Shown piece after piece: positions 3,642 through 58,805 of a stretch of 64,000 nucleotides of DNA. The DNA is from Escherichia phage teqhal, in the sequence record MN895435.1. One strand, 5' to 3'. The translations under genes and the position numbers were made by a program. The notes beneath the pieces are model-generated. The model did not search any database. It was not told where the DNA came from and saw only the letters and a list, made by a program, of their open reading frames with translations. Every line of letters starts with the position of its first letter. Within the stretch, counting starts at the first letter, position 1.

Positions 3642-3660
3642 AGGGCTTCGGCCCTTTAGC
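3641..3660 (+). terminator. UUCG-loop hairpin AAGGGCTTCGGCCCTT
   Basis: palindrome directly after a-gt stop. Confidence 0.55.
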
Positions 3661-3817
3661 TTTATACGGAGTTTGATATAATGATATTTCTTGGATATGT
3701 GATACTTTTTCTTGCATTTTATCTATTCACTAGAGCATGTTGGATTGGGTTCTTTAGTACTCCAGATGGATTTATTTCAATAATTTTATTTTGCATTTCA
3801 ATGACGGTTCTTGATAT

Positions 3818-34318: not shown

Positions 34319-34495
34319 ATGCCAATGTATGATTATAAATGCCAATCCGAAGATTGCGGGCATGAATATGAAAAAATTAAAAAGATTTCTGAACGAGAAA
34401 ATGATGTTTGCCCTAAATGTCATCGTTTGTCTACTCGTCGGCCTTCTGCTCCTAAGCATGTGAATGGTGGTTTTTACGACTTACTTAAAGGGTAA
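34319..34495 (+). CDS. small zinc-ribbon protein (CxxC ... CxxC, FmdB-like)
   Basis: 58 aa MPMYDYKCQSEDCGHEYEKIKKISERENDVCPKCHR; absent from ORF track (under 60 aa). Confidence 0.5.
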   Translation: MPMYDYKCQSEDCGHEYEKIKKISERENDVCPKCHRLSTRRPSAPKHVNGGFYDLLKG

Positions 34496-34497
34496 TT

Positions 34498-34869
34498 ATG
34501 TTTAAAATCGGTAAGAAATATTGCATTCGTGAAGGTGAAGAACAGAAATATCTACTTTCTGCTAGTAATAGGAATAGTTCTATTAATGCTGTAATATCTA
34601 CAAGCGAATTTATCGTTGAAGATATGAAAGGTAATAATGTCACAATGATTAGTACAGCATCTGGAAATGATGGAAAAATTCTTCACAGTTTTCAGAGTAA
34701 TGTTCTAATTTATGATGAAGAATTTGACCTATTCGAAGAAGTTACAGAAGATTTTGATTTTGAATGCACTATCACTATGAAATCTGGCGATCCTCTTTCT
34801 TTTACAGTTAAAGATGAAAGAAGCCGCTTGAGAGTTATTAGTCTTCTTCAAGCCATTAAATTTAAGTGA
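34498..34869 (+). CDS. hypothetical protein
   Basis: 123 aa ORF. Confidence 0.45.
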   Translation: MFKIGKKYCIREGEEQKYLLSASNRNSSINAVISTSEFIVEDMKGNNVTMISTASGNDGKILHSFQSNVLIYDEEFDLFEEVTEDFDFECTITMKSGDPLSFTVKDERSRLRVISLLQAIKFK

Positions 34870-35135
34870 AAATTATGAAATATATTAATCGTTCTATCGC
34901 AGCATTAGTATTAGCAGTGTCTTTAGTAGGATGTACTGATGCTGATAATGCAACTAAAGTTTTGTCTTCAAGTGGTTTTACTAATATTGAAATCACTGGA
35001 TATAACTGGTTCGGTTGCTCTGAAAATGATTTCCAACATACTGGATTTCGTGCTATTGGACCTACCGGGCAGAAAGTAGAAGGAACAGTATGTTCTGGGC
35101 TGTTCTTTAAGGATTCAACTATTCGTTTTAAATAA
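34866..35135 (+). CDS. putative lipoprotein
   Basis: 89 aa, signal peptide and lipobox LVGC. Confidence 0.5.
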   Translation: MKIMKYINRSIAALVLAVSLVGCTDADNATKVLSSSGFTNIEITGYNWFGCSENDFQHTGFRAIGPTGQKVEGTVCSGLFFKDSTIRFK

Positions 35136-35158
35136 AAGGCCTTCGGGCCTTTAGCTTT
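35136..35158 (+). terminator. UUCG-loop hairpin AAAGGCCTTCGGGCCTTT
   Basis: palindrome immediately after lipoprotein gene. Confidence 0.55.
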
Positions 35159-35204
35159 ATGATTACCGGAGTATAATATTCCCGAAACCAAACGAGGATA
35201 AGTG

Positions 35205-37022
35205 ATGATTAAGAATGAAATTAAAATTCTGAGCGATATTGAACATATCAAAAAGCGTAGTGGCATGTACATTGGCTCTTCTGCTAATGAAATGCATGAG
35301 CGCTTTCTGTTTGGTAAATGGGAAAGTGTTCAGTATGTACCTGGTCTTGTTAAGCTTATTGATGAAATTATCGATAACTCAGTCGATGAAGGTATTCGTA
35401 CTAAGTTTAAATTCGCGAATAAAATTAATGTTACCATTAAAAATAATCAGGTAACAGTTGAAGATAACGGTCGCGGTATTCCACAAGCGATGGTTAAAAC
35501 ACCTACCGGTGAAGAAATTCCTGGTCCAGTTGCTGCTTGGACTATTCCAAAAGCGGGTGGTAACTTCGGTGATGATAAAGAACGCGTCACTGGCGGTATG
35601 AATGGTGTTGGTTCTAGTTTAACTAACATTTTTTCTGTGATGTTTGTCGGAGAAACTGGCGACGGTCAAAATAATATTGTAGTTCGTTGTTCAAACGGCA
35701 TGGAAAATAAATCATGGGAAGATATTCCTGGAAAATGGAAAGGAACCCGTGTTACTTTCATTCCTGATTTTATGTCATTTGAAACTAATGAGCTGTCCCA
35801 AGTTTATCTTGACATTACACTAGATCGTCTCCAGACACTTGCTGTTGTTTATCCTGATATTCAATTTACCTTTAATGGTAAAAAGGTTCAGGGCAATTTT
35901 AAGAAATATGCACGCCAATATGATGAGCATGCTATTGTTCAAGAACAAGAAAATTGTTCTATTGCGGTTGGTCGTTCACCGGATGGTTTTCGTCAATTAA
36001 CTTATGTGAATAACATCCACACTAAGAATGGTGGCCATCACATTGACTGTGTTATGGATGATATTTGTGAAGACCTTATTCCACAAATCAAACGTAAGTT
36101 CAAAATTGATGTAACTAAAGCACGTGTCAAAGAATGTTTGACTATCGTTATGTTTGTTCGTGATATGAAAAACATGCGATTTGATTCTCAAACTAAAGAG
36201 CGTTTGACTTCTCCATTTGGCGAAATTCGTAGTCATATTCAGCTTGATGCTAAAAAGATTTCACGCGCTATTTTAAACAATGAAGCGATTTTGATGCCAA
36301 TTATTGAAGCTGCGTTGGCTCGTAAATTGGCGGCAGAAAAAGCAGCAGAAACTAAAGCAGCTAAAAAGGCTTCTAAAGCTAAGGTTCATAAACATATCAA
36401 AGCGAATCTTTGTGGTAAAGATGCTGATACTACTCTTTTCTTGACTGAGGGTGATTCGGCTATCGGATATCTTATTGATGTTCGTGATAAAGAACTTCAT
36501 GGTGGTTATCCATTGCGTGGTAAAGTTCTCAACAGTTGGGGTATGTCATATGCTGATATGCTTAAAAACAAAGAACTGTTTGATATTTGCGCAATCACTG
36601 GATTAGTTCTCGGTGAAAAAGCTGAAAACTTGAATTATCATAATATTGCTATTATGACTGATGCTGACCATGATGGTCTAGGAAGCATTTATCCTTCTCT
36701 GCTCGGGTTTTTTAGTAATTGGCCAGAATTGTTTGAGCAAGGACGAATTCGCTTTGTCAAAACTCCTGTAATCATCGCTCAGGTCGGTAAAAAACAAGAA
36801 TGGTTTTATACAGTCGCTGAATATGAGAGTGCTAAAGATGCTCTACCTAAACATAGCATCCGTTATATTAAGGGACTTGGCTCTTTGGAAAAATCTGAAT
36901 ATCGTGAGATGATTCAAAATCCGGTATATGATGTTGTTAAACTTCCTGAGAACTGGAAAGAGCTTTTTGAAATGCTCATGGGAGATAATGCTGACCTTCG
37001 TAAAGAATGGATGAGCCAGTAG
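35205..37022 (+). CDS. 39: topoisomerase II large (ATPase, GyrB-like) subunit gp39, unsplit
   Basis: 605 aa single ORF from ATG 35205; T4 has 39 (516 aa) plus 60 (160 aa) with a translational bypass. Confidence 0.9.
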   Translation: MIKNEIKILSDIEHIKKRSGMYIGSSANEMHERFLFGKWESVQYVPGLVKLIDEIIDNSVDEGIRTKFKFANKINVTIKNNQVTVEDNGRGIPQAMVKTPTGEEIPGPVAAWTIPKAGGNFGDDKERVTGGMNGVGSSLTNIFSVMFVGETGDGQNNIVVRCSNGMENKSWEDIPGKWKGTRVTFIPDFMSFETNELSQVYLDITLDRLQTLAVVYPDIQFTFNGKKVQGNFKKYARQYDEHAIVQEQENCSIAVGRSPDGFRQLTYVNNIHTKNGGHHIDCVMDDICEDLIPQIKRKFKIDVTKARVKECLTIVMFVRDMKNMRFDSQTKERLTSPFGEIRSHIQLDAKKISRAILNNEAILMPIIEAALARKLAAEKAAETKAAKKASKAKVHKHIKANLCGKDADTTLFLTEGDSAIGYLIDVRDKELHGGYPLRGKVLNSWGMSYADMLKNKELFDICAITGLVLGEKAENLNYHNIAIMTDADHDGLGSIYPSLLGFFSNWPELFEQGRIRFVKTPVIIAQVGKKQEWFYTVAEYESAKDALPKHSIRYIKGLGSLEKSEYREMIQNPVYDVVKLPENWKELFEMLMGDNADLRKEWMSQ

Positions 37023-37052
37023 TTTACTTTACCACAAGGATGTGGTATAATT
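37022..37052 (+). promoter_or_regulatory. T4-type early promoter
   Basis: GTTTACTTTACCACAAGGATGTGGTATAATTA. Confidence 0.5.
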
Positions 37053-37076
37053 AATTGGGCAAATGAGGATATTGGA

Positions 37077-37280
37077 ATGAAATCATATAAAGTAAATTTA
37101 GAACTTTTTGATAAAGCAGTTCATCGAGAATATAGAATCATTCAACGCTTTTTCGATATGGGAGAAGCCGAAGAATTTAAAAACCGCTTTAAGGATATTA
37201 GAGATAAAATTCAATCCGACACCGCAACTAAAGATGAACTACTAGAAGTTGCTGAAGTTATTAAACGTAATATGAATTAA
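37077..37280 (+). CDS. hypothetical protein (rIIA.1-like)
   Basis: 67 aa ORF immediately upstream of rIIA. Confidence 0.5.
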
Positions 37281-37290
37281 TGAGGAAATT

Positions 37291-39468
37291 ATGATTATCA
37301 CCACTGAAAAAGAAACAATTCTTGGTAATGGTTCTAAATCAAAAGCATTTAGCATCGCAGCAAATCCTAAAGTATTTAAAATTCTATCATCTGATTTGTA
37401 TACAAACAAGATTCGCGCAGTAGTCCGTGAATTGATTACTAACATGATTGATGCTCATGCACTTAATGGAAATCCTGAAAAATTTATCATTCAAGTTCCA
37501 GGACGATTAGATCCACGATTTGTTTGTCGAGATTTTGGTCCGGGTATGAGTGATTTTGATATTCAGGGTGATGATAATTCTCCTGGTTTGTATAATTCAT
37601 ACTTCAGTTCATCTAAGGCTGAATCTAACGATTTCATTGGCGGATTTGGGTTAGGTTCTAAATCTCCGTTTAGTTATACTGATACATTTAGTATTACTTC
37701 TTATCATAAAGGTGAAATTCGTGGTTATGTAGCTTACATGGATGGCGATGGTCCACAAATTAAACCTACATTCGTAAAAGAAATGGGTCCAGATGATAAA
37801 ACTGGTATTGAAATCGTAGTTCCAGTTGAAGAAAAAGACTTTAGAAACTTTGCTTATGAAGTTTCTTATATCATGCGACCATTCAAAGATTTGGCTATCA
37901 TTAATGGTCTTGACCGCGAAATTGATTATTTTCCGGATTTTGATGATTATTATGGCGTAAATCCAGAAAGATACTGGCCTGATCGCGGTGGATTATATGC
38001 TATCTATGGCGGTATTGTTTATCCTATCGATGGTGTTATTAGAGACCGTAACTGGCTAAGCATTCGCAATGAAGTGAATTACATTAAGTTTCCAATGGGT
38101 TCACTTGATATTGCTCCATCTCGCGAGGCTCTTTCACTGGATGATCGCACTCGTAAAAATATTATTGAACGAGTTAAAGAACTCAGTGAGAAAGCATTTA
38201 ATGAAGATGTAAAACGATTTAAAGAATCTACATCTCCTCGTCATACATATCGTGAATTGATGAAGATGGGGTATTCTGCTCGAGATTATATGATTAGTAA
38301 TTCAGTCAAATTCACGACTAAAAATCTGTCATATAAGAAAATGCAGAGCATGTTTGAACCTGACAGTAAGTTATGTAATGCAGGCGTGGTGTATGAAGTA
38401 AATCTTGACCCTCGACTGAAGCGTATTAAGCAAAGTCATGAAACTTCAGCCGTTGCATCAAGTTATCGTCTGTTTGGTATTAATACGACAAAAATTAATA
38501 TTGTTATTGATAATATTAAAAATCGTGTTAATATTGTCCGTGGATTAGCACGTGCATTAGATGATAGTGAATTTAATAACACCTTAAATATTCATCACAA
38601 TGAGCGTCTTCTGTTTATTAATCCGGAAGTAGAATCACAGATTGATTTGCTTCCTGACATTATGGCGATGTTTGAAAGTGATGAAGTTAACATTCATTAT
38701 TTGTCAGAAATTGAAGCTTTAGTTAAAAGCTATATTCCAAAGGTAGTTAAAAGTAAAGCTCCTCGTCCTAAAGCTGCTACAGCATTTAAATTTGAAATTA
38801 AAGATGGGCGATGGGAAAAAGAGGAACTATTTACACTTACGTCAGAAGCAGATGAAATTACTGGTTATGTAGCGTATATGCATCGTTCTGATATTTTCTC
38901 TATGGATGGTACTACATCGCTTTGTCATCCATCTATGAATATTTTGATTCGTATGGCTAATCTTATTGGCATTAATGAATTTTATGTTATTCGTCCGCTT
39001 TTGCAGAAAAAGGTAAAAGAGCTTGGTCAGTGCCAATGTATTTTTGAAGCTTTACGTGATTTATATGTAGATGCTTTTGATGATGTAGATTATGATAAGT
39101 ATGTAGGTTATTCAAGTTCAGCTCAACGATATATTGATAAAATTATCAAGCATCCTGAACTAGATTTTATGATGAAGTACTTCAGTACAGATGAAGTTTC
39201 TGAAGAATATACACGACTTGGTAATATGGTTAGTTCATTACGCGGTGTATATTTCAACGGTGGAAAAGATACCATCGGTCATGATATCTGGACAGTAACT
39301 AATCTCTTTGATGAATTATCACGTAATGCTTCAAAAAATAGTGATAAAATGGTTGCTGAGTTTACCAAGAAATTCCGTATTGTTTCCGACTTCATCGGTT
39401 ATCGCAACTCTTTAAGTGATGATGAAGTTTCCCAAATCGCTAAAACTATGAAGGCCCTTGCGGCCTAA
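37291..39468 (+). CDS. rIIA: rIIA protein
   Basis: 725 aa, same length as T4 rIIA; N-terminal ATPase-like [10 protein letters not shown] motif. Confidence 0.9.
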
Positions 39469-39479
39469 TAAGGAAAATT

Positions 39480-40418
39480 ATGTACAATATTAAATGCCTG
39501 ACCAAAAACGAACAATCTGAAATTGTTAAATTGTATTCAAGTGGTAATTACACCCAACAGGAATTGGCTGATTGGCAAGGTGTATCGGTTGACACAATCC
39601 GTCGTGTTTTGAAAAATGCTGAAGAAGCTAAACGCTCTAAAGTTACTATTAGCGGTGATATTACAGTTAAAGTTAATAGCGATGCAGTTATTGCTCCAGT
39701 TGCTAAATCTGACATTATTTGGAATGCATCTAAAAAATTCATTTCAATTACTGTTGACGGTGTAACTTATAACGCAACTCCTAATACTCATTCAAACTTC
39801 CAGGAAATTCTTAATCTGCTTGTAGCGGATAAGCTGGAAGAAGCTGCACAAAAAATTAATGTTCGCCGTGCTGTTGAAAAATATATTTCCGGCGATGTTC
39901 GAATTGAAGGTGGAAGCTTGTTCTATCAAAATATCGAATTGCGGTCTGGTTTGGTTGATCGTATTCTTGACTCGATGGAAAAAGGCGAAAACTTTGAATT
40001 TTATTTTCCGTTCTTGGAAAATCTGCTGGAAAACCCAAGCCAAAAAGCGGTATCTCGACTCTTTGATTTCTTGGTAGCAAACGATATTGAAATTACAGAA
40101 GATGGTTACTTCTATGCTTGGAAAGTAGTTCGCAGCAATTACTTTGACTGTCACTCAAACACCTTTGATAACAGTCCGGGTAAAGTAGTTAAAATGCCGC
40201 GTACTCGTGTGAATGACGATGATACACAAACTTGTTCTCGTGGTCTGCATGTGTGTTCTAAATCTTATATTCGTCACTTCGGTGGTTCAACCAGCCGAGT
40301 TGTAAAAGTTAAAGTACATCCACGCGATGTAGTATCAATTCCGATTGATTACAACGATGCTAAAATGCGTACCTGCCAATACGAAGTAGTTGAAGACGTT
40401 ACTGAACAATTTAAATAA
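39480..40418 (+). CDS. rIIB: rIIB protein
   Basis: 312 aa, same length and position as T4 rIIB. Confidence 0.9.
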   Translation: MYNIKCLTKNEQSEIVKLYSSGNYTQQELADWQGVSVDTIRRVLKNAEEAKRSKVTISGDITVKVNSDAVIAPVAKSDIIWNASKKFISITVDGVTYNATPNTHSNFQEILNLLVADKLEEAAQKINVRRAVEKYISGDVRIEGGSLFYQNIELRSGLVDRILDSMEKGENFEFYFPFLENLLENPSQKAVSRLFDFLVANDIEITEDGYFYAWKVVRSNYFDCHSNTFDNSPGKVVKMPRTRVNDDDTQTCSRGLHVCSKSYIRHFGGSTSRVVKVKVHPRDVVSIPIDYNDAKMRTCQYEVVEDVTEQFK

Positions 40419-43423: not shown

Positions 43424-44752
43424 ATGCAACTGAATAATCGCGATTTAAAAAGTATCATTGATAATGAAGCATTGGCTTATGCTATGTACACGGTTGAAAA
43501 TCGTGCTATTCCAAATATGATTGATGGATTTAAGCCAGTTCAACGATTTGTTATTGCTCGAGCTCTTGATTTGGCACGAGGAAATAAAGATAAGTTTCAC
43601 AAACTTGCTTCTATTGCAGGTGGTGTAGCGGACCTTGGATATCACCATGGTGAAAACTCTGCACAAGATGCAGGGGCTTTGATGGCTAATACTTGGAATA
43701 ATAACTTTCCTTTGTTAGATGGTCAAGGAAACTTCGGTTCTCGTACTGTCCAAAAGGCAGCAGCTAGTCGTTATATTTTTGCTCGTGTAAGTAAAAATTT
43801 CTATAACGTATATAAAGATACTGAATATGCTCCAGTACATCAAGATAAAGAACACATTCCGCCTGCTTTCTATTTGCCTATTATTCCTACTGTTCTTCTT
43901 AATGGTGTTTCCGGTATTGCAACTGGTTATGCAACTTACATTCTTCCTCATAGTGTTTCTTCTGTCAAGAAAGCTGTACTGCAAGCTCTTCAAGGAAAGA
44001 AAGTAACTAAACCGAAGGTAGAATTCCCAGAATTTCGTGGTGAAGTCGTTGAGATTGATGGGCAATATGAAATTCGTGGAACATACAAGTTTACTTCACG
44101 AACTCAAATGCATATCACTGAGATTCCGTATAAGTATGATCGTGAAACTTATGTGAGTAAAATCTTAGACCCACTTGAAGATAAAGGCTTCATTACGTGG
44201 GATGATGCTTGTGGTGAGCATGGCTTTGGCTTTAAAGTTAAATTCCGTAAAGAATATTCTTTGAGCGATAATGAAGAAGAACGCCATGCAAAAATTATGA
44301 AAGACTTCGGGTTGATTGAGCGTCGTTCCCAAAATATTACCGTTATTAATGAGAAAGGAAAGCTACAAGTTTACGATAACGTAGTTGATTTAATCAAAGA
44401 CTTCGTTGAAGTTCGTAAAACTTATGTCCAAAAACGAATTGATAACAAAATCAAAGAAACTGAATCAGCATTTCGTTTAGCCTTTGCCAAGGCGCATTTC
44501 ATTAAGAAAGTAATTTCAGGTGAAATTGTTGTACAGGGTAAAACTCGTAAAGAACTGACCGAAGAACTTTCTAAAATTGAGATGTATTCTTCTTATGTTG
44601 ATAAACTAGTTGGAATGAATATTTTTCATATGACTTCTGATGAAGCAAAGAAACTTGCTGAAGAAGCTAAAGCTAAAAAAGAAGAAAACGAATATTGGAA
44701 AACTACTGATGTAGTTACAGAATACACTAAAGATTTAGAGGAAATCAAATGA
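43424..44752 (+). CDS. 52: topoisomerase II medium subunit gp52 (GyrA-like)
   Basis: 442 aa, same length as T4 gp52. Confidence 0.9.
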   Translation: MQLNNRDLKSIIDNEALAYAMYTVENRAIPNMIDGFKPVQRFVIARALDLARGNKDKFHKLASIAGGVADLGYHHGENSAQDAGALMANTWNNNFPLLDGQGNFGSRTVQKAAASRYIFARVSKNFYNVYKDTEYAPVHQDKEHIPPAFYLPIIPTVLLNGVSGIATGYATYILPHSVSSVKKAVLQALQGKKVTKPKVEFPEFRGEVVEIDGQYEIRGTYKFTSRTQMHITEIPYKYDRETYVSKILDPLEDKGFITWDDACGEHGFGFKVKFRKEYSLSDNEEERHAKIMKDFGLIERRSQNITVINEKGKLQVYDNVVDLIKDFVEVRKTYVQKRIDNKIKETESAFRLAFAKAHFIKKVISGEIVVQGKTRKELTEELSKIEMYSSYVDKLVGMNIFHMTSDEAKKLAEEAKAKKEENEYWKTTDVVTEYTKDLEEIK

Positions 44753-45025: not shown

Positions 45026-45661
45026 ATGTCTAAAGTAACTTACATCATCAAAGCTTCTAACGATGTTCTGAATGAAAAAACTGCTGCGATTTTAATTACT
45101 ATTGCTAAGAAAGATTTCATTACAGCTGCAGAAGTTCGTGAGGTGCATCCAGATTTAGGTAACGCAGTAGTTAATAGTAATATTGGGGTATTGATTAAAA
45201 AAGGCCTGGTGGAGAAATCTGGTGATGGATTAATCATTACTGGTGAAGCTCAGGATATTATTTCAAATGCAGCAACTTTATATGCACAGGAAAATGCTCC
45301 GGAACTACTGAAAAAACGAGCAACTCGTAAAGCTCGCGAGATTACTTCCGATATGGAAGAAGATAAAGACCTCATGTTAAAACTTTTAGATGAAAATGGA
45401 TTTGTTCTTAAAAAGGTTGAAACTTATCGTAGTAATTATCTTGCCATTTTAGAAAAACGCACTCACGGAATTCGTAATTTTGAAATTAACAACAATGGAA
45501 ACATGCGAATTTTTGGATACAAAATGATGGAACATCATATTCAGAAATTTACTGACATCGGAATGTCATGTAAAATCGCTAAAAACGGTAATGTGTATCT
45601 TGACATTAAACGCTCGGTAGAAAACATTGAAGCAGTAATCACTGTAGCATCTGAACTGTGA
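45026..45661 (+). CDS. motA: middle-transcription activator MotA
   Basis: 211 aa, same length as T4 MotA, preceded by an early promoter. Confidence 0.9.
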   Translation: MSKVTYIIKASNDVLNEKTAAILITIAKKDFITAAEVREVHPDLGNAVVNSNIGVLIKKGLVEKSGDGLIITGEAQDIISNAATLYAQENAPELLKKRATRKAREITSDMEEDKDLMLKLLDENGFVLKKVETYRSNYLAILEKRTHGIRNFEINNNGNMRIFGYKMMEHHIQKFTDIGMSCKIAKNGNVYLDIKRSVENIEAVITVASEL

Positions 45662-47480: not shown

Positions 47481-47753
47481 ATGAATAAAAACATTGATAC
47501 AGTTCGTGAAATTATTACTGTTGCGTCTATTTTGATTAAATTTTCCAGAGAAGATATTGTTGAGAATCGTGCTAATTTTATTGCATTTCTGAATGAGATT
47601 GGAGTAACGCATGAAGGTAGAAAATTAAATCAGAATTCATTCCGTAAAATTGTTTCTGAATTAACTCAAGAAGATAAGAAAACCCTCATCGACGAATTCA
47701 ACGAGGGTTTTGAGGGTGTATATCGATATCTAGAGATGTATACGAACAAATAA
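47481..47753 (+). CDS. asiA: anti-sigma-70 factor AsiA
   Basis: 90 aa, MNKNIDTVREIITVASILIKFSREDIVENRANFIAFLNEIG matches remembered T4 AsiA. Confidence 0.9.
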   Translation: MNKNIDTVREIITVASILIKFSREDIVENRANFIAFLNEIGVTHEGRKLNQNSFRKIVSELTQEDKKTLIDEFNEGFEGVYRYLEMYTNK

Positions 47754-48410
47754 TTATTTAGCCCTTCCTAATATTCTGGCCGCCTGAGCGCATATTGATT
47801 CAAGGCGGTCATTACTTATATGATCATTTCTATACCAGTACATGGTTATCGTTCCAGCATAGATATTATCCAAATTAAAATATGGACAACTGTACATGTA
47901 GTTTATTTCGGGAGTAGGCTTTTTAGTTGGTAAAAAAGCAAATTTTGAGTCAGAATAATAATGACGTCCATTTAAATGAACTATATATTCATCCATAGTT
48001 TTATCAACAGGATATCCTCCAAGTGATTTTTCAGTTATTGTTGAAGGTAATCTTCCTTCGTATGCTATAATATCAACAAAATAGTTTAAGTTTTTAGGGC
48101 GGAAAGAATACACCGCACTAAAGTCTGCCTCAGATGATATATGAACTATCTGGAGTTGTTCCAGGGCGACAGATTCAAAGCGTGCATTTCTTTCCTTTTC
48201 AATAATTTCACTGTATGTTTCATACTTTGATTGCTTATAGTACTCAAAGAAACTATCTCCCCTATACCAAACAATCGCCATCATAAATAAAAGAATTACG
48301 ACAGCTACCCGGGAAGCAAGAACCTTCCCAGTAGCGTTATCTTTGAACAAGCGATCTAGAACACCAAATAGAATATCAGAGGGCGAAAATGATATTCTAG
48401 GTGCTGCCAT
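47754..48410 (-). CDS. t: holin T
   Basis: 218 aa, one N-terminal TM segment and large periplasmic domain, T4 holin length. Confidence 0.9.
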   Translation of the reverse strand: MAAPRISFSPSDILFGVLDRLFKDNATGKVLASRVAVVILLFMMAIVWYRGDSFFEYYKQSKYETYSEIIEKERNARFESVALEQLQIVHISSEADFSAVYSFRPKNLNYFVDIIAYEGRLPSTITEKSLGGYPVDKTMDEYIVHLNGRHYYSDSKFAFLPTKKPTPEINYMYSCPYFNLDNIYAGTITMYWYRNDHISNDRLESICAQAARILGRAK

Positions 48411-48442
48411 AGACCCTCCTTTTAAGGATATTTATTCAAAAA

Positions 48443-49228
48443 TTATACTCTTGAACCATATATTGTACCAACCTTAGTCCAAGTTGGAGCATTACCAGTA
48501 ACAGCTTTACCGGCCGCGCCGCCGTTATATTCTGATCCTTGCCCACGAATATTACATTTACCACCTGCGGCACCAGCATCACCGCCATTCCCGCCATTAT
48601 AGATACCATTGACAGACCCTTTACCAGGTGCAGAAATAGTACCAGCAGTAGCGCCCTGTTCCATATTAGCAGACCCGCCAGCAGCACCAAATGGACGACC
48701 GCCGCCACCGCCAAAAGTCAATTTCATTTGTGAAAAAGGAGAATAATATCCGCCTCCACCGCCGCCACCGCCTCCTGCGATAACACCATTGTTGTTAATA
48801 CGCAATCTAGTTCCAATTCCATTATTTATTGCAGTTCCTCCTGCTCCACCGGCAGAGTTATTTCCGCCATTCCCGCCACGGCCCCAAACATGCACTCCTG
48901 AATTGATATTAAGTGTCACGTATGCATTAGTTAATGAGCTAGGAAAATCTAAGCATGGAACACCAGTAGATTGAGAAACAATATTTCCTGTAATAGTAAT
49001 AACAACAGGAGTACTGCCTTGGGCTTTTATCCAGTTTATTAATGTATCTTTATTATAAGAATTACTAGCACCAATGCTATAATATACTTCTTTAGATTGT
49101 CCGGCCATTGAGCTCATCCAACCGGGAACTGAAACACGGACTGCTCTCATTGCAGCATCCATCCAACGTTGTCCAGTTTCATTCACGGCAGATTCACCAA
49201 TCCAGCCAGGAACACCTACAATTGCCAT
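48443..49228 (-). CDS. 38: long tail fibre adhesin gp38 (T2 type, glycine-rich)
   Basis: 261 aa with repeated poly-Gly tracts (GGGGGGGGGYY, FGGGGGRPFGAAGG) between variable segments. Confidence 0.8.
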   Translation of the reverse strand: MAIVGVPGWIGESAVNETGQRWMDAAMRAVRVSVPGWMSSMAGQSKEVYYSIGASNSYNKDTLINWIKAQGSTPVVITITGNIVSQSTGVPCLDFPSSLTNAYVTLNINSGVHVWGRGGNGGNNSAGGAGGTAINNGIGTRLRINNNGVIAGGGGGGGGGYYSPFSQMKLTFGGGGGRPFGAAGGSANMEQGATAGTISAPGKGSVNGIYNGGNGGDAGAAGGKCNIRGQGSEYNGGAAGKAVTGNAPTWTKVGTIYGSRV

Positions 49229-49239
49229 TAAAAATCCTT

Positions 49240-49257
49240 AGAGGGCCGAAGCCCTCT
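49240..49257. other. palindromic hairpin AGAGGGCCGAAGCCCTCT between genes 37 and 38
   Basis: perfect inverted repeat in the 30 nt intergenic gap. Confidence 0.5.
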
Positions 49258-49258
49258 T

Positions 49259-52200
49259 TTACATAAGTTTAGATTCAAGTTCTTTTACACGAGAAGAAAG
49301 CGTTTTCACAGCTTCAACCAGAAGAGCAATCTGGGCTTGAGAAGAAACAGTGAGTATTTTATTACCCTTGCTGTCTTCTGTTTCACGGACGGCTTCTGGT
49401 AAAACGTCTTGTAACGTTTGAGCTACAATACCCGCTTCAGTTTCAATTGCCTCTCCACCGATGTATTCAGCTTTATCATAAATGACACCATTGAGTTTTT
49501 CAACTTTATCAAGTGCATTTTCGATAGGTTTGAAATTAGATTTTAAGCGAATATCAGAACGAATATAAACGTTTGGAGCATTTATATTTTTATATGAGTA
49601 CAAATCACCGTTTTGGAAACGGAATACTTGTACGCTGTTCGCATATATGTCTAATAATCCATCGCCATTTTGCTTAATACCAGTATCGCTATCACCAAAT
49701 GCTATACTATTTCCACCAAGTGCGTTATTGATATTAATACCAAATGAATTCATTTGGTTAACACCAGCTACAGTAGCATTATTTACTACAAAGCGGTTAG
49801 CTCCACCTGGAGCTTTTTCAAAGTAAGCAATATAGTTAGTTTCATCGGCAATTTCAATACGGTTACCACGAGAAGCATCGCCAGCATGAAATATTCTCAT
49901 ATTTCTTGGGTTAGCACCAGACTTATCAAAGTTAATAGAACCATTATCTTTGACATTTATGCTATTATAGAATAAAGCAGCACTGCGAACAGCTATGCCG
50001 TTATTCATTAATACTTCACCGGTTGTTAAGTTAATTGCGAAAGGACGCTTACTATTCCAATCACCGTTAACAGTTGCTTCGCCATCGGTGGCATTTTTAT
50101 CTGTAAACAGAATATAAAAACTACTGCCATCATTTCGTAGCATTGTAGCAACAGAACCAGTTTTATCGCTGTTGCTTCTAATACGAATACCAGTTTGGTT
50201 ATTAATAGCTATTTCAGAATCGGCTTCATAACGCTTAACTTTGCCGCGATCAACCAAGTTATTAAGAACATTAGCAACTTGCCCATCAACTGCTGTATCT
50301 GGAAGAGCATCCACAGGTGATTGGGTAGATGAGTTAATACCAATAACGCTAACAGTAGCATTTTCGGTACATGACCATTCACAAGTTAATTGATTGCAAT
50401 ATGTTCCGGCATAAACATAAATGTCATATGTATCTCCAGAGACGTTATTAACTGCAATATTTTTAAATGCAGCTGCAATTGTTCTTGTGTATAATACAGC
50501 ATTTAAGTCAGCAGGTCTTTCATTACTAGTACGTAAAACAATTTCAGCAATATTGCATTGTGTGAATAATCCACTATTAAATCCAGAACCACCGGCTATT
50601 TTAAAGAAGACCGTAGAAGTGGATTGTGGCATTGTTACTGTTGCAAACTTATACCATCCAGCAGTTGCTCCATAAGTAATAAATCCAGAATTAACTTTAC
50701 GATTTAGCGTGGTGTTTAAGTTAGCAAAGTTTCCTGAACCGCTAGTAATATTACCATCAGTTCCTAGTTGGGCATTTCCGACTTTAAGAGGTTTACTGAT
50801 TGACACGAAATTATCGCTTATAACAAGACCGTGTCCATAAGATTGACTATAAAGCGATAAATCACTTCCAGCGCCACCAAGACCAACATACCACGATCTA
50901 GTTCCAGCTTTAGAACCCTGCAAATAATTAGCAGAAGAAGATGAAGGAGAATCTAGAGTAAGCGCTGCATTACGTTCATTAATAGTTACTGGACATATCA
51001 TTTTAATAGTTTTAAGACTATTACTTACTTGTAATAATCCTGTACCAGATCCAGAATCTCCTAAATGAACATCATGCGACATTTTAACTGTGCCGGTGTT
51101 CAGTTCTATTATCAATGGTCTAAGATTACTTATACCGCCAGATTCTCCAGCATCTTTAGGAGTCGGGATAATATAAAGATTTCTTTCTGAGCGACGGAAA
51201 ATAGCACCATATTCGGCATTCCAAATTCTTAATGCATCAGCAGTTCCGCCGATTTTAACTTGTCCAGTAATAGAAGAACCACCTTGGACAAACAAACCAT
51301 TAGACATGGTAACATTACCGACTAAAGTGCTTAATCCATTAACTTTAAAACTTCCGTCAGTAATAATACTTCCTCTAGCATTAACAGCTCCAGCAAACTG
51401 GGTTACAACAGGACCAGTAGTTTCTGAGCCGCTTGGGGCTACACGCTGGGAATAAAAATAATAACCTTGTCCGTCAGCTACTTCAAAAACTGTTTCACGA
51501 TTACGATCGCCAGATGCGTTAAATGAATTACCCCACGCTTTAACAGTTACATAGCTTTTATTCTGACCAGCACGAGTACCGCCTTCCCACAAAATTTGCT
51601 TAGTGCCATCAATTGTAGTAGTTGGAGCGAATGTTAGCCCAGCAGTAGAATTATTAGCTGCTAAATATATGCCGTTATATATTGAAAGCTGCTTAACAGA
51701 TGTAATACCGCCATCAGCATAAAACATTACATTATTAGAGCCAGTTACCAATTTCAAAATACCTGGGTTAACTTCCATGCCTTCTTGAGTATTAATATTA
51801 GTTTTTCCTTTACCACGGAAATAGTGGTTCATTTTACCGCCAGAGTTATATCCAATGTGGGTTTGACCATCTCCAGCAGAGTTTTCATCAGCCTGTGTTT
51901 GAACCGATAAAAAAGCAGCGTTCGTTCCAGGCATAATCCATGTTCCGCCTTGGTCTTCTGAACGTCCAAATAATGCTTTACGAGTACTACGGAAACTGTC
52001 AGGAGTAATAGACGCGATAGAAAGACCATTAGCAACTAAATCATATACACCAGATCTTTTATATGATACACCAGTTGCGGCATCTCCAATGACTATATAG
52101 CATTCACCCATTGCTCCAGTGGAGCCGTAATTATTAATGTTTTCATCTGTTGTAATTGTACCAATTGCGAGTGAGCGTCGCAACACTAAAGACCCATCAT

Positions 52201-53041
52201 TGCGAAGGCCCATTTGTTTATTAACGGCTGTATTACCGGTCCACCAAGACAGTTCATCACTTTTTCCGGTTTGTGCAGAAGCTAATTCATGATAAATCGT
52301 ACCACCAGATTTTGCACGGAATTTACGAAGGTAATTAATTCCGTTTGTTTCACCAGTTCCAGGATAAACATATTGAACTAATGACTGCGAATCGTATTGT
52401 CCAAACGCTTTCGTATCAAATGAAATATTTTTAGTTACAACAGATGGACCAATCAAAGAACCTGTTCTTGTTTCAATATTACTCTGAGCGACTAAATACC
52501 CACCAGATACTAATAAATTACCAGAATCAACTTGAAAATTACCTGAGCGCGCAAATGTCCAATATTTAGATTGACCAGTTTCATCAATATAATGAATCTT
52601 CAACGAACCTTCAGAAACTAAAGTACCTAATGAAAAAGTTCCATCTTTAAAGCGCTGTTTAATTATAGGATTATATTCAGATGTGGAAGTAGCTGAGCTT
52701 AAATCTACAAAAATTGGAGCCTTTGCAGTGTGTTGACCGGACCAAGCCCCACTTCCAGTAGTACGATAATTAAACTCAATATATCCACCACTTGCTATAA
52801 TCTGCGGGCCAATTAAATTAAATTTTCCAGTCTGTGTATAATCACCAGTTTGAGTGATATTACCACTGATATTACCGCCAGCGGTAATGCTTAAGTCAAT
52901 GATATTTCCTGAATCGTCTTTAGTAAAAATTGTTCTATCTTTTAAGTTTATAGCCAATTCACCTTCGGCTAATACTGAAGCAGCAGGACGTTGACCTGCA
53001 GTTTTGCTTCTTTTAAATTGTATTTGTTTTAAAGTAGCCAT
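49259..53041 (-). CDS. 37: long tail fibre distal subunit gp37
   Basis: 1260 aa; Gly/Ser/Thr/Asn-rich fibre sequence; C-terminus SDIRLKSNFKPIENALDKVEKLNGVIYD resembles an intramolecular chaperone (S74-like) module. Confidence 0.85.
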   Translation of the reverse strand: MATLKQIQFKRSKTAGQRPAASVLAEGELAINLKDRTIFTKDDSGNIIDLSITAGGNISGNITQTGDYTQTGKFNLIGPQIIASGGYIEFNYRTTGSGAWSGQHTAKAPIFVDLSSATSTSEYNPIIKQRFKDGTFSLGTLVSEGSLKIHYIDETGQSKYWTFARSGNFQVDSGNLLVSGGYLVAQSNIETRTGSLIGPSVVTKNISFDTKAFGQYDSQSLVQYVYPGTGETNGINYLRKFRAKSGGTIYHELASAQTGKSDELSWWTGNTAVNKQMGLRNDGSLVLRRSLAIGTITTDENINNYGSTGAMGECYIVIGDAATGVSYKRSGVYDLVANGLSIASITPDSFRSTRKALFGRSEDQGGTWIMPGTNAAFLSVQTQADENSAGDGQTHIGYNSGGKMNHYFRGKGKTNINTQEGMEVNPGILKLVTGSNNVMFYADGGITSVKQLSIYNGIYLAANNSTAGLTFAPTTTIDGTKQILWEGGTRAGQNKSYVTVKAWGNSFNASGDRNRETVFEVADGQGYYFYSQRVAPSGSETTGPVVTQFAGAVNARGSIITDGSFKVNGLSTLVGNVTMSNGLFVQGGSSITGQVKIGGTADALRIWNAEYGAIFRRSERNLYIIPTPKDAGESGGISNLRPLIIELNTGTVKMSHDVHLGDSGSGTGLLQVSNSLKTIKMICPVTINERNAALTLDSPSSSSANYLQGSKAGTRSWYVGLGGAGSDLSLYSQSYGHGLVISDNFVSISKPLKVGNAQLGTDGNITSGSGNFANLNTTLNRKVNSGFITYGATAGWYKFATVTMPQSTSTVFFKIAGGSGFNSGLFTQCNIAEIVLRTSNERPADLNAVLYTRTIAAAFKNIAVNNVSGDTYDIYVYAGTYCNQLTCEWSCTENATVSVIGINSSTQSPVDALPDTAVDGQVANVLNNLVDRGKVKRYEADSEIAINNQTGIRIRSNSDKTGSVATMLRNDGSSFYILFTDKNATDGEATVNGDWNSKRPFAINLTTGEVLMNNGIAVRSAALFYNSINVKDNGSINFDKSGANPRNMRIFHAGDASRGNRIEIADETNYIAYFEKAPGGANRFVVNNATVAGVNQMNSFGININNALGGNSIAFGDSDTGIKQNGDGLLDIYANSVQVFRFQNGDLYSYKNINAPNVYIRSDIRLKSNFKPIENALDKVEKLNGVIYDKAEYIGGEAIETEAGIVAQTLQDVLPEAVRETEDSKGNKILTVSSQAQIALLVEAVKTLSSRVKELESKLM

Positions 53042-53049
53042 AAGTCCTC

Positions 53050-53715
53050 TTAATAATAGCCGAAATCTTGAACAGAATCCTTAATTACGATTTGATCAAA
53101 TCGCGGAACGTGAGAAGGTTGAGACGCAGGATTCTGTGAGAAAAAGTTTGGCGCGGTTAAATTACCTATCATAGTGTCGCCAGAACGCAACACTCTAGAG
53201 TTCGCATTTGCTGTAACAGTATTTATTGCTCCATCAACATAGTCCTTTCTAGTAAGGTCATTCGCTGCTATAGGAGCAGCTGCATCACTTCTTACTTGAC
53301 CTGCCGCAGACACAACACCTTTTGTGCTAATATCACCATTACGTGCATTAATTACAACAGTTCGGGCTGCTGAACCCTGCGATGATTTAAAACCAATACC
53401 ATTCCACGAAACAATATCAATATTTGCTACAGCAAAAGTAGCATTATCACCGTTACCTGGATAAATACCGCATGGGTTTGTGTTGTTTACAGCATACGGG
53501 ACTTGGACGCCGCCGTTAAATGTTACCTTTGATGCATAAGTACCACCATTAGCTTTAGAAACGAAATCGTTATCTGCAGCTTGTGGTTTGTTATATTCTG
53601 AATATATTTTAAATGATTTATAGAGTACATCGTCACCGGCCGGATTCAATGGAAAATTTCCTTGATGCCAAATGACAGAGCCTCCAGCTGTTGAACCTAC
53701 TTTTAAATCAGCCAT
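53050..53715 (-). CDS. 36: long tail fibre subunit gp36
   Basis: 221 aa, same length and position as T4 gp36. Confidence 0.8.
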   Translation of the reverse strand: MADLKVGSTAGGSVIWHQGNFPLNPAGDDVLYKSFKIYSEYNKPQAADNDFVSKANGGTYASKVTFNGGVQVPYAVNNTNPCGIYPGNGDNATFAVANIDIVSWNGIGFKSSQGSAARTVVINARNGDISTKGVVSAAGQVRSDAAAPIAANDLTRKDYVDGAINTVTANANSRVLRSGDTMIGNLTAPNFFSQNPASQPSHVPRFDQIVIKDSVQDFGYY

Positions 53716-53738
53716 TGTATGCCCCTTTATTTTAATAG

Positions 53739-53746
53739 TATTTATA
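53739..53746 (-). promoter_or_regulatory. late promoter TATAAATA (minus strand) upstream of gene 36
   Basis: plus-strand TATTTATA about 24 nt upstream of gp36 start. Confidence 0.55.
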
Positions 53747-53777
53747 AAGAAAAAGGGAACCCGAAGGCTCCCTCAAT

Positions 53778-54893
53778 TTATACTTCTCTAAATTCTTGCC
53801 CAAACACTTTACCAGTTTTAGACGATGCTTGTGTAGGAAGTACCATTATATCCGGAGGTGAAGCAGATTCACAGATATAATTAACACGAATGCCGTTGAC
53901 GCCAAATTCAGCGGGTTTTGAAATTCCGCCATTTCTTGATACTTCAGAAAAGCTTAAATTTCGCATACCGCCTTGTCCCGCTTGAGCAGTTCTTTGTGCA
54001 TATATCGTAAATCCAACTGCATTTTCTGGAACAACTACATAATCTTCCTTTAATTCCCAAGACCCAGCTTGTCCAGTAAACTCAGCTTGTGTCGAGGAAA
54101 TATATCCGTTAGATGCATTATAAAAACGGATAGATATATTTGTTGTTCCAAGAGCAAGTAAATCGGCATCAGCATATAACTGGGCTTTAAGATAAAGAAC
54201 GTCACCAGGAATTAAATTATAATCAGAGAGTTTACTTATAGCAGCTGAAGTTGGTAGACGCGCAATTTCGTTATTAGTTCCACCAACCGCTGACATGAAT
54301 TGCTCAACACTTTCATACGTTCTTCTTGGAAACCCGGTAGCTCCGACATCTTCTAAACTGTCAAATACAACATCTAAAATAGTTTGATAATCATCTGTGC
54401 TTTTTCTATTACTTAATTTAACATGCTCTAATGCGATAGCTCTTTTAGAAGAAGTGTAAAAAGCAGCATATGATACATCAAATCTCGACAATATAGAGTC
54501 AGATGGAAAAGCAGACGTTCCGGCGGTTCTTAACCAAGATACTACTTCAGGAGGAAAATTAACCTTTCCGTTAGTTAATATAGCAACAATTCGATTATTC
54601 GTCAAAGAATTCATGAAATTAACAAAAGCAGCTGATGTAGTATCATTTGAAGTCGAAAAAGCATATGACTTACTATCAACTAATGCTCCTGTAGAAGGGT
54701 CAAAAACTCTTAAATGAAGGCCTGCGCTAAATGTTTGACTTCCGACAGGATTATCCTGAAATTTAACGTATGGTCCTGCTGTAGAAAGCGGGCAAGAACC
54801 CGCTATGCTTATTTTATATCTTACTGAATTGCTTTCCGATAAAAATGGCGTTTGGACATATCCTTGTCCAAACTCTGCCATAAATTTTTCCAT
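53778..54893 (-). CDS. 35: long tail fibre hinge protein gp35
   Basis: 371 aa, MEKFMAEFGQGYVQTPFLSES matches remembered T4 gp35. Confidence 0.85.
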   Translation of the reverse strand: MEKFMAEFGQGYVQTPFLSESNSVRYKISIAGSCPLSTAGPYVKFQDNPVGSQTFSAGLHLRVFDPSTGALVDSKSYAFSTSNDTTSAAFVNFMNSLTNNRIVAILTNGKVNFPPEVVSWLRTAGTSAFPSDSILSRFDVSYAAFYTSSKRAIALEHVKLSNRKSTDDYQTILDVVFDSLEDVGATGFPRRTYESVEQFMSAVGGTNNEIARLPTSAAISKLSDYNLIPGDVLYLKAQLYADADLLALGTTNISIRFYNASNGYISSTQAEFTGQAGSWELKEDYVVVPENAVGFTIYAQRTAQAGQGGMRNLSFSEVSRNGGISKPAEFGVNGIRVNYICESASPPDIMVLPTQASSKTGKVFGQEFREV

Positions 54894-54901
54894 AATACCT
54901 C

Positions 54902-57900
54902 TTATTCAACCCATTCAAATTTAACAGTTTTATTCACTGGGTCAGGAATAATGCGAACATTACCAATTCGTAAGAAATCACGAATAGTAAGATTCCCCAT
55001 TGTAGCATTATCAGATGGTAAAGCACCGATATCAGACGGCTGAGGAGGGTTACCTCCGTCAAATACCTGAACAAAACTTGACCAAGAGTTTTTGGTTTTC
55101 TGCCATGTACGTGTCCAGCGAGTGGTACGCGCTTCTGGTGTCGTTGGATAAGTAATCCAATCTTGGTAAAGCGAATCAAGTGTGTTACCAAACTGTGTCA
55201 GTGTACCAGGAGATTTAACTTCTTCGCCACGTTCTAAGTATGGAAGTCCAGTCACTTCATTAGTTTTTTCAACCATTTTAAAATAACCTGGGAACTGGTT
55301 ATAAGTGGCTGAATCGTTAATATCGATTGACCAGAATCCTACCGTATCAGATGTTGGCGCACGGGTATATAAATCAGATGTTTTAGTACCCTGAGAACGA
55401 ATTCTCGAGTTAACAGTTAAACCGCCTGAATTTATAGTAGCACCTTTGGCAATGATTAAGCTTTCACCAATTGTGACTTGACCGGATTGATTATTAATTG
55501 ATAATGGACGTAATCCATTAAATCCACCGGTCTGATCACCAGATGCAGTAAGCATAAAATATGTGCTGCCGCCATCATTCCTGATAAAGAATCCATAATC
55601 ACCGTTTATTGCTCTGAAAGCATTTGCAGACTTGCTAATGAATTCACCATTGGCTGTAACTGAACTACCAAATGTTGCTACGCCATTCGCATTCAATGAA
55701 CCGGAAGCGTTAACATTTATTGGCATCACAGTACCATTAATGCTAAACGTAATATTACCAGCTTTATTACGTTGAGAATAAAAGTGATTAGATGTTTCAT
55801 CACCAACTTCAAATACAGTAGAACGCGTTGTATCTGATCCGCCACTAAACTGATTTCCCCAAACTCTGATAGTCATCGTCTGTGCTGGGTTAGTTCCAGT
55901 TTGAGGTCCTTTCTCAAAAATCAGACGAGTTGCTGTTCCAGTATTAGAAATAGTTAATGTACTATTTGCCGAAACTGAACCACCAAACGTAGCAGTACTA
56001 GATGATACAAGAGGGGCACTCAGATTCGTTTGTTGGGTTAAGGTTAGTGAACCATTAACCGTCTGTGCAATATCCCTACGAATGAACTGAGATGAATCTA
56101 GACCATCCAATAAATTACTATCTGCAGCTTTTGCTTTTAACGGTAAATAATTTGCTAATACACGGTTTAATTCATATGGTGATATTGCATAGCTATTTTT
56201 CTCATACAGTTCTAAATCTTGGGTAGAACCGACTGTATCATTACCAACGAACGTAATTGAACCAGATGAAGTTTTAACAAAACCTCTTACCGCAGTAGTA
56301 GCTGCCCAGGTAGGTTCACTCTGCACAATCCATTTTAAATTTTTTGGAGATACAGCAGTATTTGCTGATGCTCCAGTCACAGTTTCAGACTGAGTTGCAA
56401 CTTTAATAACACCTTCCTGTGATTCGGTAGATTTAGTACTTAAAAGCTTTTTAGGAGTTATTAAAACATTATCTAATGTTCCTGTAGCAGCTTCAACTTG
56501 TGTAGCTACACGAAGTGTACCACGTTGCGTCTCATTTGCTTCAAGAATATTAAGGGTATAATGGTCCCAGAGAGTTCCTGATTCAACTAATCCAGATAGA
56601 GCAACAACAGAAGTACGATCAGTACTATTAAATCTGGTTTTAATTTTTAATGGTGTAGAGATACGAGTATCGTCGACGCCTGCGTCGAATTCAACTTGTG
56701 TAGCAATTTCAGCTATACCACTTAAACTTTCAGTTGCTCTACGGTCATTTAAAGTTTTAGGAGTGACTGCACGAGTATAATCAGTTCCTGTATTAACTTC
56801 ACTTTGCGTAGCAATTTCAATTAAACCAATTCTTCCATCAGTTGATGTCTTTTTATGTAACGTTTCTGGCGTTACAACAGCATTTGCCCATCCTTCTTGA
56901 CTCTGTCCAGCAATTACTTCACTTTCAACTGCTAAAATTACTGCACCTTGTTGCGTTGGAGTAGCTTTATACTGATCCAAAGCTTTAGGTGAAACAACTA
57001 AATTATTAGTGTTTTTATTATAAACGTTTGTACCATTTAATTCACGACTAGAAGCTGGAGTAGCGCCTGCGGTAGATACAAAAGTTACAATACCAGATAA
57101 TGATTCAGAACCTTGACGAGCTTGAAGCTTTTTAGGAGTGATGATTGTAGTATCATCGGTTCCTGCATTAGTTTCTTGCTGCGTAGCAATTTCAGCAACA
57201 CCTCTGCGAGTTTCTGTAGCAGTTCTTTCATTCAGCTTTTTAGGAGTAATGATAAGGTCATCTGCAAAAGAGAATGTGGTGTTCTGATTCACTTGAGCAG
57301 TAGTTGCTATTCTTGCAATACCTCTGCGAGTTTCTGTAGCAGTACGGTTAGCTAATGTTTCTGGAGTAATTGCTAATTCTTTTTGTGGAGAATTTTCTAA
57401 ATCGACATTAGCTTGAGCTTGTGTAGCTAAAGCAATTACGCCTAATCTTGCTCTAGTAGAATCATTCAAAGAGTCTACTCTTTCTACGGTTGGAACGTTT
57501 TGTTGTACAACCCAGTATTTTCCATCAGAATCTTCTATATAAGCAAGTTGTAAAACTGGAACATAATTAGTTTCACCGTTAAAAACTAATTCTTGAACAG
57601 TTACCCATTCAGCTTCAGGCGGATATTCTGAACGTTTTGGGAATTGCAGCAATTGAACTGAAGAAGCAATTTTATCTTCACCGGCAGCTTTGATTTTAAC
57701 TGTTTGTCCTTTTCTCATGTAATTCATGGAAATTTTAACAGTATCACCAACAGAAATATTAGTTGGAAGCTGAAGCTCAATTGTTTGAGTTGTTCCGTTA
57801 TTCGCACCAAATACCATAACTTCTTCGTTTGGACGAATATTAGAATTAGTCGTTATAATGCGTAAACGTGCTTTACTATCCCCGTCAAACAATCTCCACA

Positions 57901-58771
57901 ATTTCTCATTATCATCAAACATCAAGAAACCGTCAATCGATGTACGGCCTTCAATGGAATGAGTTCCAACTTCTTGTACTGAAGTCGTTTCATCGTATGT
58001 AGTAACAATTGTATGATAAAGTGGATTCAGTTTATCTAAATCAACGAAATTAATAATATCGCCATGATTAGCAAATCTTGGAAGTTTAACATTAATTGGT
58101 GCAGCAGAAGTAAATCTACGTACGATAAAATCATTTGATTGCGCTTGATAAGTATTCGCTGGTGTTACAACTACAGCTTCTCTACTATAATCAGCAACAT
58201 ACATTTGCCACAGACGATTACTAAAAATTAAAACTAGCTGTGACTTTGGATGAGTCATTAGTACTGAACGTACTTGTTGACCTCTGAAGTTTACAATACT
58301 TTGCACCGGAGCTACAATTAAAACTTGGTTAACTCCAGGTTTTCCTCCAATATCTTGGAGAACGATAGTATCACCATCAATTGGGGTAGATGGTAAAGTA
58401 AATGTAATATCATTACCAGCTGCGGTGTTAACCGAAATAGCTTCACCAGATTTTAATTGATATGAACCAGATGAAACCGTAATCCAGTTAGCATCGGTAC
58501 GTAATGCTCTCCAGCGTCCGCTATTAAAAGCTCCTGCCGGTTTTGGAATATCATTTATAGCAGCCCAAAAGCGGTTATCATAAATGATTACAAAATCTTT
58601 TAAATATCCACGAGTTGGATCGTATTGTTGAACTGTGTTTTCTTGAATTAAGTAATCAACGTTAACACCGTCAGTTCCTACGGTACGATCAGCTAAAGCT
58701 ACGTTGATTATTTTATCACCACCTGCGTCCAGACCGTCTTCTGCTCTGAACTTTCTTTTAATCTCGGCCAT
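54902..58771 (-). CDS. 34: long tail fibre proximal subunit gp34
   Basis: 1289 aa, same length as T4 gp34, internal ATETRRG-type repeats. Confidence 0.9.
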   Translation of the reverse strand: MAEIKRKFRAEDGLDAGGDKIINVALADRTVGTDGVNVDYLIQENTVQQYDPTRGYLKDFVIIYDNRFWAAINDIPKPAGAFNSGRWRALRTDANWITVSSGSYQLKSGEAISVNTAAGNDITFTLPSTPIDGDTIVLQDIGGKPGVNQVLIVAPVQSIVNFRGQQVRSVLMTHPKSQLVLIFSNRLWQMYVADYSREAVVVTPANTYQAQSNDFIVRRFTSAAPINVKLPRFANHGDIINFVDLDKLNPLYHTIVTTYDETTSVQEVGTHSIEGRTSIDGFLMFDDNEKLWRLFDGDSKARLRIITTNSNIRPNEEVMVFGANNGTTQTIELQLPTNISVGDTVKISMNYMRKGQTVKIKAAGEDKIASSVQLLQFPKRSEYPPEAEWVTVQELVFNGETNYVPVLQLAYIEDSDGKYWVVQQNVPTVERVDSLNDSTRARLGVIALATQAQANVDLENSPQKELAITPETLANRTATETRRGIARIATTAQVNQNTTFSFADDLIITPKKLNERTATETRRGVAEIATQQETNAGTDDTTIITPKKLQARQGSESLSGIVTFVSTAGATPASSRELNGTNVYNKNTNNLVVSPKALDQYKATPTQQGAVILAVESEVIAGQSQEGWANAVVTPETLHKKTSTDGRIGLIEIATQSEVNTGTDYTRAVTPKTLNDRRATESLSGIAEIATQVEFDAGVDDTRISTPLKIKTRFNSTDRTSVVALSGLVESGTLWDHYTLNILEANETQRGTLRVATQVEAATGTLDNVLITPKKLLSTKSTESQEGVIKVATQSETVTGASANTAVSPKNLKWIVQSEPTWAATTAVRGFVKTSSGSITFVGNDTVGSTQDLELYEKNSYAISPYELNRVLANYLPLKAKAADSNLLDGLDSSQFIRRDIAQTVNGSLTLTQQTNLSAPLVSSSTATFGGSVSANSTLTISNTGTATRLIFEKGPQTGTNPAQTMTIRVWGNQFSGGSDTTRSTVFEVGDETSNHFYSQRNKAGNITFSINGTVMPINVNASGSLNANGVATFGSSVTANGEFISKSANAFRAINGDYGFFIRNDGGSTYFMLTASGDQTGGFNGLRPLSINNQSGQVTIGESLIIAKGATINSGGLTVNSRIRSQGTKTSDLYTRAPTSDTVGFWSIDINDSATYNQFPGYFKMVEKTNEVTGLPYLERGEEVKSPGTLTQFGNTLDSLYQDWITYPTTPEARTTRWTRTWQKTKNSWSSFVQVFDGGNPPQPSDIGALPSDNATMGNLTIRDFLRIGNVRIIPDPVNKTVKFEWVE

Positions 58772-58805
58772 TCTCCCGGGCTCCTATTGTGTTTTCAATA
58801 ATAAG

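Follow-up and report, generated by a model that had tools for sequence, protein, structure and literature searches.

In phage T4 the large subunit of DNA topoisomerase II is divided between gene 39 and gene 60, the ribosome hops over 50 nt within gene 60, and a mobile endonuclease is associated with the split, an outline taken from a preliminary description of the DNA studied here that agrees with the T4 record and with our alignments. Knowledge of the two-subunit topoisomerase of the T2/T6 type, and of its relation to the T4 split, dates back to the 1980s-90s. The gene 39 locus of Escherichia phage teqhal, where the large subunit is encoded by a single ORF, raises the question of whether such a gene preserves the arrangement that existed before the split or returned to it after losing an inserted element. 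The window considered throughout is the whole stretch of 64,000 nt analysed from this phage (MN895435.1), which megablast assigns to Tequatrovirus, its closest match at this locus being Escherichia phage FriedrichZschokke (99.2% over 2.3 kb).

Gene 39 of teqhal (35205..37022, plus strand) encodes an unsplit topoisomerase II large subunit, with ATPase, transducer and TOPRIM parts, in 605 aa followed by a stop. One uninterrupted ORF of that size had been claimed here, and the reading frame bears this out: it contains no internal stop, codon 606 being the only in-frame stop, and a run of 605 open codons would arise by chance with a probability of about 2e-21 given the composition of the window (35% G+C, stop probability 0.076 per codon). 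The ORF listing places the frame at 35202..37022 (plus strand), which corresponds to 606 aa if translation is read from the GTG at 35202, and an ATG one codon later, at 35205, yields 605 aa. We prefer the ATG because the Shine-Dalgarno spacing and the annotations of T4, T2 and T6 agree on it: a GAGGA read in the sequence at 35194..35198 (plus strand) lies 6 nt before the ATG but only 3 nt before the GTG, and the N-terminus that starts at 35205, MIKNEIK, is the one annotated for gp39 in all three phages. The GTG was accordingly rejected as the start of gene 39.

In the intergenic sequence upstream of gene 39, a GGCC-TTCG-GGCC hairpin can be read at 35138..35149 (plus strand), and this UUCG hairpin closes gene 39.1. 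It is followed on the same strand by GCTTTA (35154..35159), which resembles a MotA box, and, 12 nt downstream, by TATAAT (35172..35177). Based on the general features of T4 middle promoters, these two motifs probably form a putative MotA-dependent middle promoter, and MotA itself is encoded within the window (motA, 45026..45661). A scan of 34400..37400 for sigma-70 promoters and terminators did not list this putative middle promoter, returned fewer promoter-like sites than shuffled sequence did and gave nothing informative inside gene 39.

The identity of the protein is clear from its domains. Three Pfam models scored above their curated cut-offs, namely HATPase_c (38.3 bits against 26.4), indicating the GHKL ATPase domain, DNA_gyraseB (PF00204, the transducer; 51.1 bits against 27) and TOPRIM_C (30.7 bits against 29), and the ORF matched PHROG 543, "DNA topoisomerase II large subunit", with E=2e-295. 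The ATPase part carries an N-box (EIIDNSVDE, aa 54-62), a G1 motif (DNGRGIP, aa 87-93) and a G2 motif (GGMNGVGSS, aa 130-138), and the QTK loop of the transducer is found at aa 329-331. In the TOPRIM part, the catalytic glutamate motif EGDSA (aa 415-419; 36447..36461, plus strand) and the acidic motif DADHDG (aa 486-491; 36660..36677, plus strand) belong to the same ORF, so that the complete domain, catalytic glutamate and DxD cluster alike, lies on a single chain. We are close to certain that a Tequatrovirus gene 39 in its common uninserted state occupies 35205..37022 and encodes the whole GyrB-like subunit, and no observation contradicts this.

Alignment with the two T4 proteins shows how the single ORF covers both of them, as had been proposed. 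Residues 1-473 of teqhal gp39 align with residues 1-473 of T4 gp39 at 98.5% identity, and residues 472-605 align with residues 27-160 of T4 gp60 at 95.5% identity. In the DNA, blastn finds homology to T4 over 34873..36622 and again from 36687 onwards, which gives breakpoints at 36622/36623 and 36686/36687. Between them teqhal has 64 nt (36623..36686, plus strand; codons 473/474 to 494), corresponding to the uninserted MobA homing-site region, whereas T4 has 1117 nt (record positions 3910..2794). In T4 this stretch encodes 43-44 aa that are added to the C-terminus of gp39, and it also holds mobA, as a pseudogene, and 60.1; all of these are missing in teqhal. The 30-aa N-terminal tail, or head, of T4 gp60 is also not present in teqhal, and where T4 gp60 has a diverged 16-aa HomR copy of NYANVAIMTDADHDG, teqhal has the parental version. 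As a consequence of the split, EGDSA is found on gp39 and the DxD motif on gp60 in T4, whereas both stand on one chain in teqhal. Nevertheless, gp39 plus gp60 of T4 make up the same enzyme as gp39 of teqhal, encoded at the same genomic position between 39.1 and rIIA.1.

The codons at DADHDG settle the matter of translational bypassing, which had been said to be missing here. T4 reads GAT CAC GAT GGA, followed by a UAG stop and a 50-nt gap that ends at a second GGA, after which TTA GGT TCT ATT is translated. At the same place teqhal reads GAC CAT GAT GGT CTA GGA AGC ATT: the codon of Gly491 is GGT instead of the GGA take-off codon, and the codon alignment revealed neither a stop nor a 50-nt gap at the take-off equivalent, GGT being directly followed by CTA. 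Translation of gp39 starts at ATG 35205 and proceeds by ordinary triplet decoding.

These differences match what has been published on the MobA element. In a mapping that covered many phages, its insertion was placed at nt 1399-1419 of the Topo2L gene (aa 466-473) and its 3' end, for the T4 clade (clade 1), 9 nt beyond D490/G491, with 64 nt of the parental gene deleted and an element of 1097-1106 nt; in T4 the metal site is split between gp39 and gp60 as a result (bioRxiv 10.1101/2022.08.31.505936). The breakpoints between teqhal and T4 coincide with these boundaries, including the 64-nt deletion. Similarly, the topoisomerase gene has been described as split by an inserted mobA "as compared to related phage" (PMC2988022). 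Insertion of a MobA homing-endonuclease cassette of about 1.1 kb into gene 39 accounts for both the 39/60 split and the 50-nt bypass of T4.

The unsplit protein of teqhal is nearly the same as that of T2 and T6. T2 gp39 (AYD82600.1 / BBF63163.1) also has 605 aa and differs by a single residue, F70L; its gene is 96.0% identical to that of teqhal on the DNA level, with 72 differences that are mostly synonymous, and nothing differs functionally between the two. The 64-nt MobA target region of T2 is identical to 36623..36686 of teqhal, and the neighbours are shared as well (39.1 upstream; rIIA.1 and rIIA downstream). In a search of the PDB, T6 gp39 (YP_010067157.1) matched over the full length with 603 of 605 residues identical, the two substitutions being D173T and Q526H (T6 numbering equivalents); the T6 matches comprised 8ylu and five more entries, including 8yo1 and 8yo5, among them cryo-EM and crystal structures. 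An artificial fusion of T4 gp39 and gp60, also in the PDB, aligns to teqhal gp39 in two stretches.

A separate peculiarity of the T4 protein appeared in these alignments. The T4 reference (NC_000866) has a cluster of differences at aa 326-328 and 355 of gp39; just before the QTK loop it has MRLIRQTK, against MRFDSQTK in the window, in T2 and in T6. The cluster has the appearance of a compensated frameshift, or else of an old error in the sequencing of T4.

The medium subunit with which gp39 would assemble is also encoded in the window. Gene 52 (43424..44752, plus strand; 442 aa) specifies the DNA-cleavage, GyrA-like partner of gp39 and matches the gp52 chains of T4 and T6 (8yo3_A, 8ylu_A) over their full length with E of about 5e-297. 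Carrying GHKL ATPase, transducer and entire TOPRIM domain on one polypeptide, gp39 would combine with gp52 (winged-helix, tower and coiled-coil) in an A2B2 type IIA topoisomerase, a composition expected by homology, since 99.7-99.8% of the protein is shared with T2 and T6. The phage topoisomerase relaxes DNA without supercoiling it, unlike its cellular relatives. Judging from the 99.7% identity to T6 gp39, the teqhal enzyme would perform such relaxation at the expense of ATP during phage replication. The activity of the phage enzyme, including that of T6 gp39, was measured by relaxation assays (PMC11461880). In T6, gp39 forms a two-subunit enzyme with gp52; T2 and T6 are both described as having this architecture, T4 being the exceptional case with three subunits, and both kinds of structure have been solved (PMC11461880).

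We then come to the ancestral state, for which three sources of evidence agree. In cellular GyrB and ParE, and in the N-terminal half of eukaryotic Topo II, the GHKL ATPase, transducer and TOPRIM domains follow in the same order on one chain as in teqhal gp39, and although distant in sequence (E 1e-36 to 1e-60), these proteins align to it in one stretch across the T4 split point. Among related phages, the exact 64-nt parental segment was retrieved from 411 phage records (with at least 99% identity in 169) and the 1117-nt element of T4 from 43; the unsplit gene therefore represents about 90%, the uninserted form being some 10 times commoner and the T4 arrangement the exception. Database annotations even name the fused form "gp60plus39". 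Finally, published analyses call the genes of the T2 type "parental" and take the MobA/bypass cassette for a mobile element that was inserted recently (bioRxiv 10.1101/2022.08.31.505936; PMC2988022; PMC11461880). Because the cellular homologues are unbroken at the split point, the uninserted form dominates the related phages and the literature agrees, the proposal that unsplit gene 39 is the ancestral state is supported.

That the arrangement is ancestral does not by itself tell how teqhal came to have it. T-even phages recombine freely, and the cassette might have been present at some time and then lost by recombination or gene conversion with a co-infecting uninserted phage, which would make the unsplit state of teqhal a secondary one. 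The window is indeed a mosaic, about 99% identical to FriedrichZschokke in gene 39 and about 96-97% identical to others over 24 kb, and the element has been considered as maybe mildly deleterious and progressively lost (bioRxiv 10.1101/2022.08.31.505936). We queried the whole window with the intact MobA of RB55, the C-terminal and N-terminal tails (CTE and NTE), the 50-nt cassette and the DNA of the full 1.1-kb element. Neither tblastn with the intact MobA nor blastn with the whole element found anything at the gene 39 locus; the two tails gave no significant tblastn match (best E 0.3, at unrelated positions), and the 50-nt cassette produced only chance-level matches of 9-14 nt in the window, away from the locus. 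One candidate was discarded in this search: the cassette hairpin GCCTTCGGGC has a 10-nt match at 35139..35148, which is no more than the UUCG-tetraloop hairpin upstream of gene 39, with an E of 1.9 that corresponds to chance level.

Loss of the cassette is thus opposed by the lack of any CTE, NTE, mobA or bypass remnant at the gene 39 locus, and also by the 64-nt segment, which is the parental one, identical to that of T2, and not the diverged HomR version. Moreover, the losses published so far keep the split and the tails and do not restore the gene (bioRxiv 10.1101/2022.08.31.505936), and the uninserted state is the commoner by the factor given above. On this evidence we consider such a history very improbable for teqhal, even though a gene restored by cassette loss would look identical to an ancestral one, a pair of histories that sequence alone does not tell apart. 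No feature of the sequence points to a clean reversion of this kind, which, if true, would document that the element can be lost completely. Another path to a single ORF is the secondary fusion of genes that were once split, as known in other phage clades such as the Campylobacter phage "clade 8", whose ORFs keep the tails in frame (bioRxiv 10.1101/2022.08.31.505936). In a fusion of that type, CTE and NTE would persist inside TOPRIM as about 70 additional residues, but teqhal gp39 has 605 aa and no tail sequences, and it is collinear with T2, T6 and the cellular homologues, with no insertion. We give this explanation no weight and reject it. The simplest reading is that the teqhal lineage was never inserted, since the tails are absent and the parental segment is found in place of the diverged HomR copy.

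The only tblastn match of RB55 MobA in the window fell at 7331..7678 (minus strand), in a paralogue with 39% identity. This match belongs to a 238-aa ORF (6962..7678, minus strand) that shares 8 nt with the end of gene 46 (5281..6969), including its stop, and encodes an HNH homing endonuclease of the free-standing kind (PHROG 655, E=1e-68), whose N-terminal 109-119 aa are those that share 39% identity with RB55 MobA. By its sequence, the predicted product is a Mob-family paralogue and not MobA. Of 503 related phage records, about 59 contain the full region of this ORF; in RB32 and RB33, which are among them, it is annotated as "putative site-specific intron-like DNA endonuclease". Most of the other records lack it.

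The neighbourhood of gene 39 in teqhal (goF, 39.2, 39.1, 39, rIIA.1, rIIA, rIIB, denB, ndd, 52, motA) follows the order of T4 and T2 minus the insertion. Directly downstream of gene 39 is rIIA.1 (37077..37280; Pfam T4_RIIA1, E=1.4e-33), followed by rIIA (37291..39468) and rIIB (39480..40418), all on the plus strand. In the window rIIA is a single intact ORF of 725 aa, whereas in FriedrichZschokke and RB55 it is annotated as two CDSs of about 104 aa and about 576-628 aa (L002 5292..7469; L005 3211..4106), which may reflect either a frameshift or insertion, or an artefact of sequencing or annotation. Upstream, between 39.2 and 39.1, there is a 123-aa ORF (34498..34869, plus strand; PHROG 622) that has no T4 counterpart, the DNA homology to T4 skipping 34501..34872; T2 has a related ORF at this position, annotated as similar to RB69ORF005c/RB32ORF005c. 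The 39.1 homologue itself (34866..35135, plus strand) matched PHROG 902 and had no Pfam match. It begins with a signal-peptide-like stretch that ends in LVGC, resembling a lipobox, which suggests a small lipoprotein. The 39.1 of T4 is annotated as a shorter protein of 65 aa, although the DNA homology reaches further upstream. Farther along the window, at about 47750..58800, the GC skew changes sign and large ORFs (1260 aa, 1289 aa, 371 aa and others) occupy the minus strand, consistent with a block of late tail-fibre genes (34-38) transcribed opposite to the early region that contains gene 39.

What is known of MobA homing bears on the role that the locus may play in mixed infections. According to Bonocora et al. 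2011, as reported in a later study, MobA nicks the T2 gene in the vicinity of the 64-nt region and the cassette is copied into T2 when phages infect together (bioRxiv 10.1101/2022.08.31.505936). The bypass insert is described, in that study and through it by Bonocora et al. 2011, as shielding the donor genome from its own MobA (bioRxiv 10.1101/2022.08.31.505936). Without the cassette and with an intact 64-nt target, teqhal would act as a recipient in MobA homing, not as a donor. Since its segment is identical to that of T2, it should be a competent homing target, and sensitivity to MobA can be predicted.

The absence of the split and of the hop in teqhal is real, but it is already well known and corresponds to the usual published state of Tequatrovirus. 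The genome had been put forward as a useful comparator for the origin of the T4 insertion, which is the one weak point of the proposal: T2, T6, RB14 and hundreds of further genomes can already be used in this way and such a comparison is in print, so that teqhal adds nothing new. With teqhal, one more is added to the approximately 400 uninserted Tequatrovirus genomes that have been sequenced, and its main value lies in the correct annotation of gene 39. The phage could also be used as a naive recipient in homing experiments, a purpose that T2 could serve equally.
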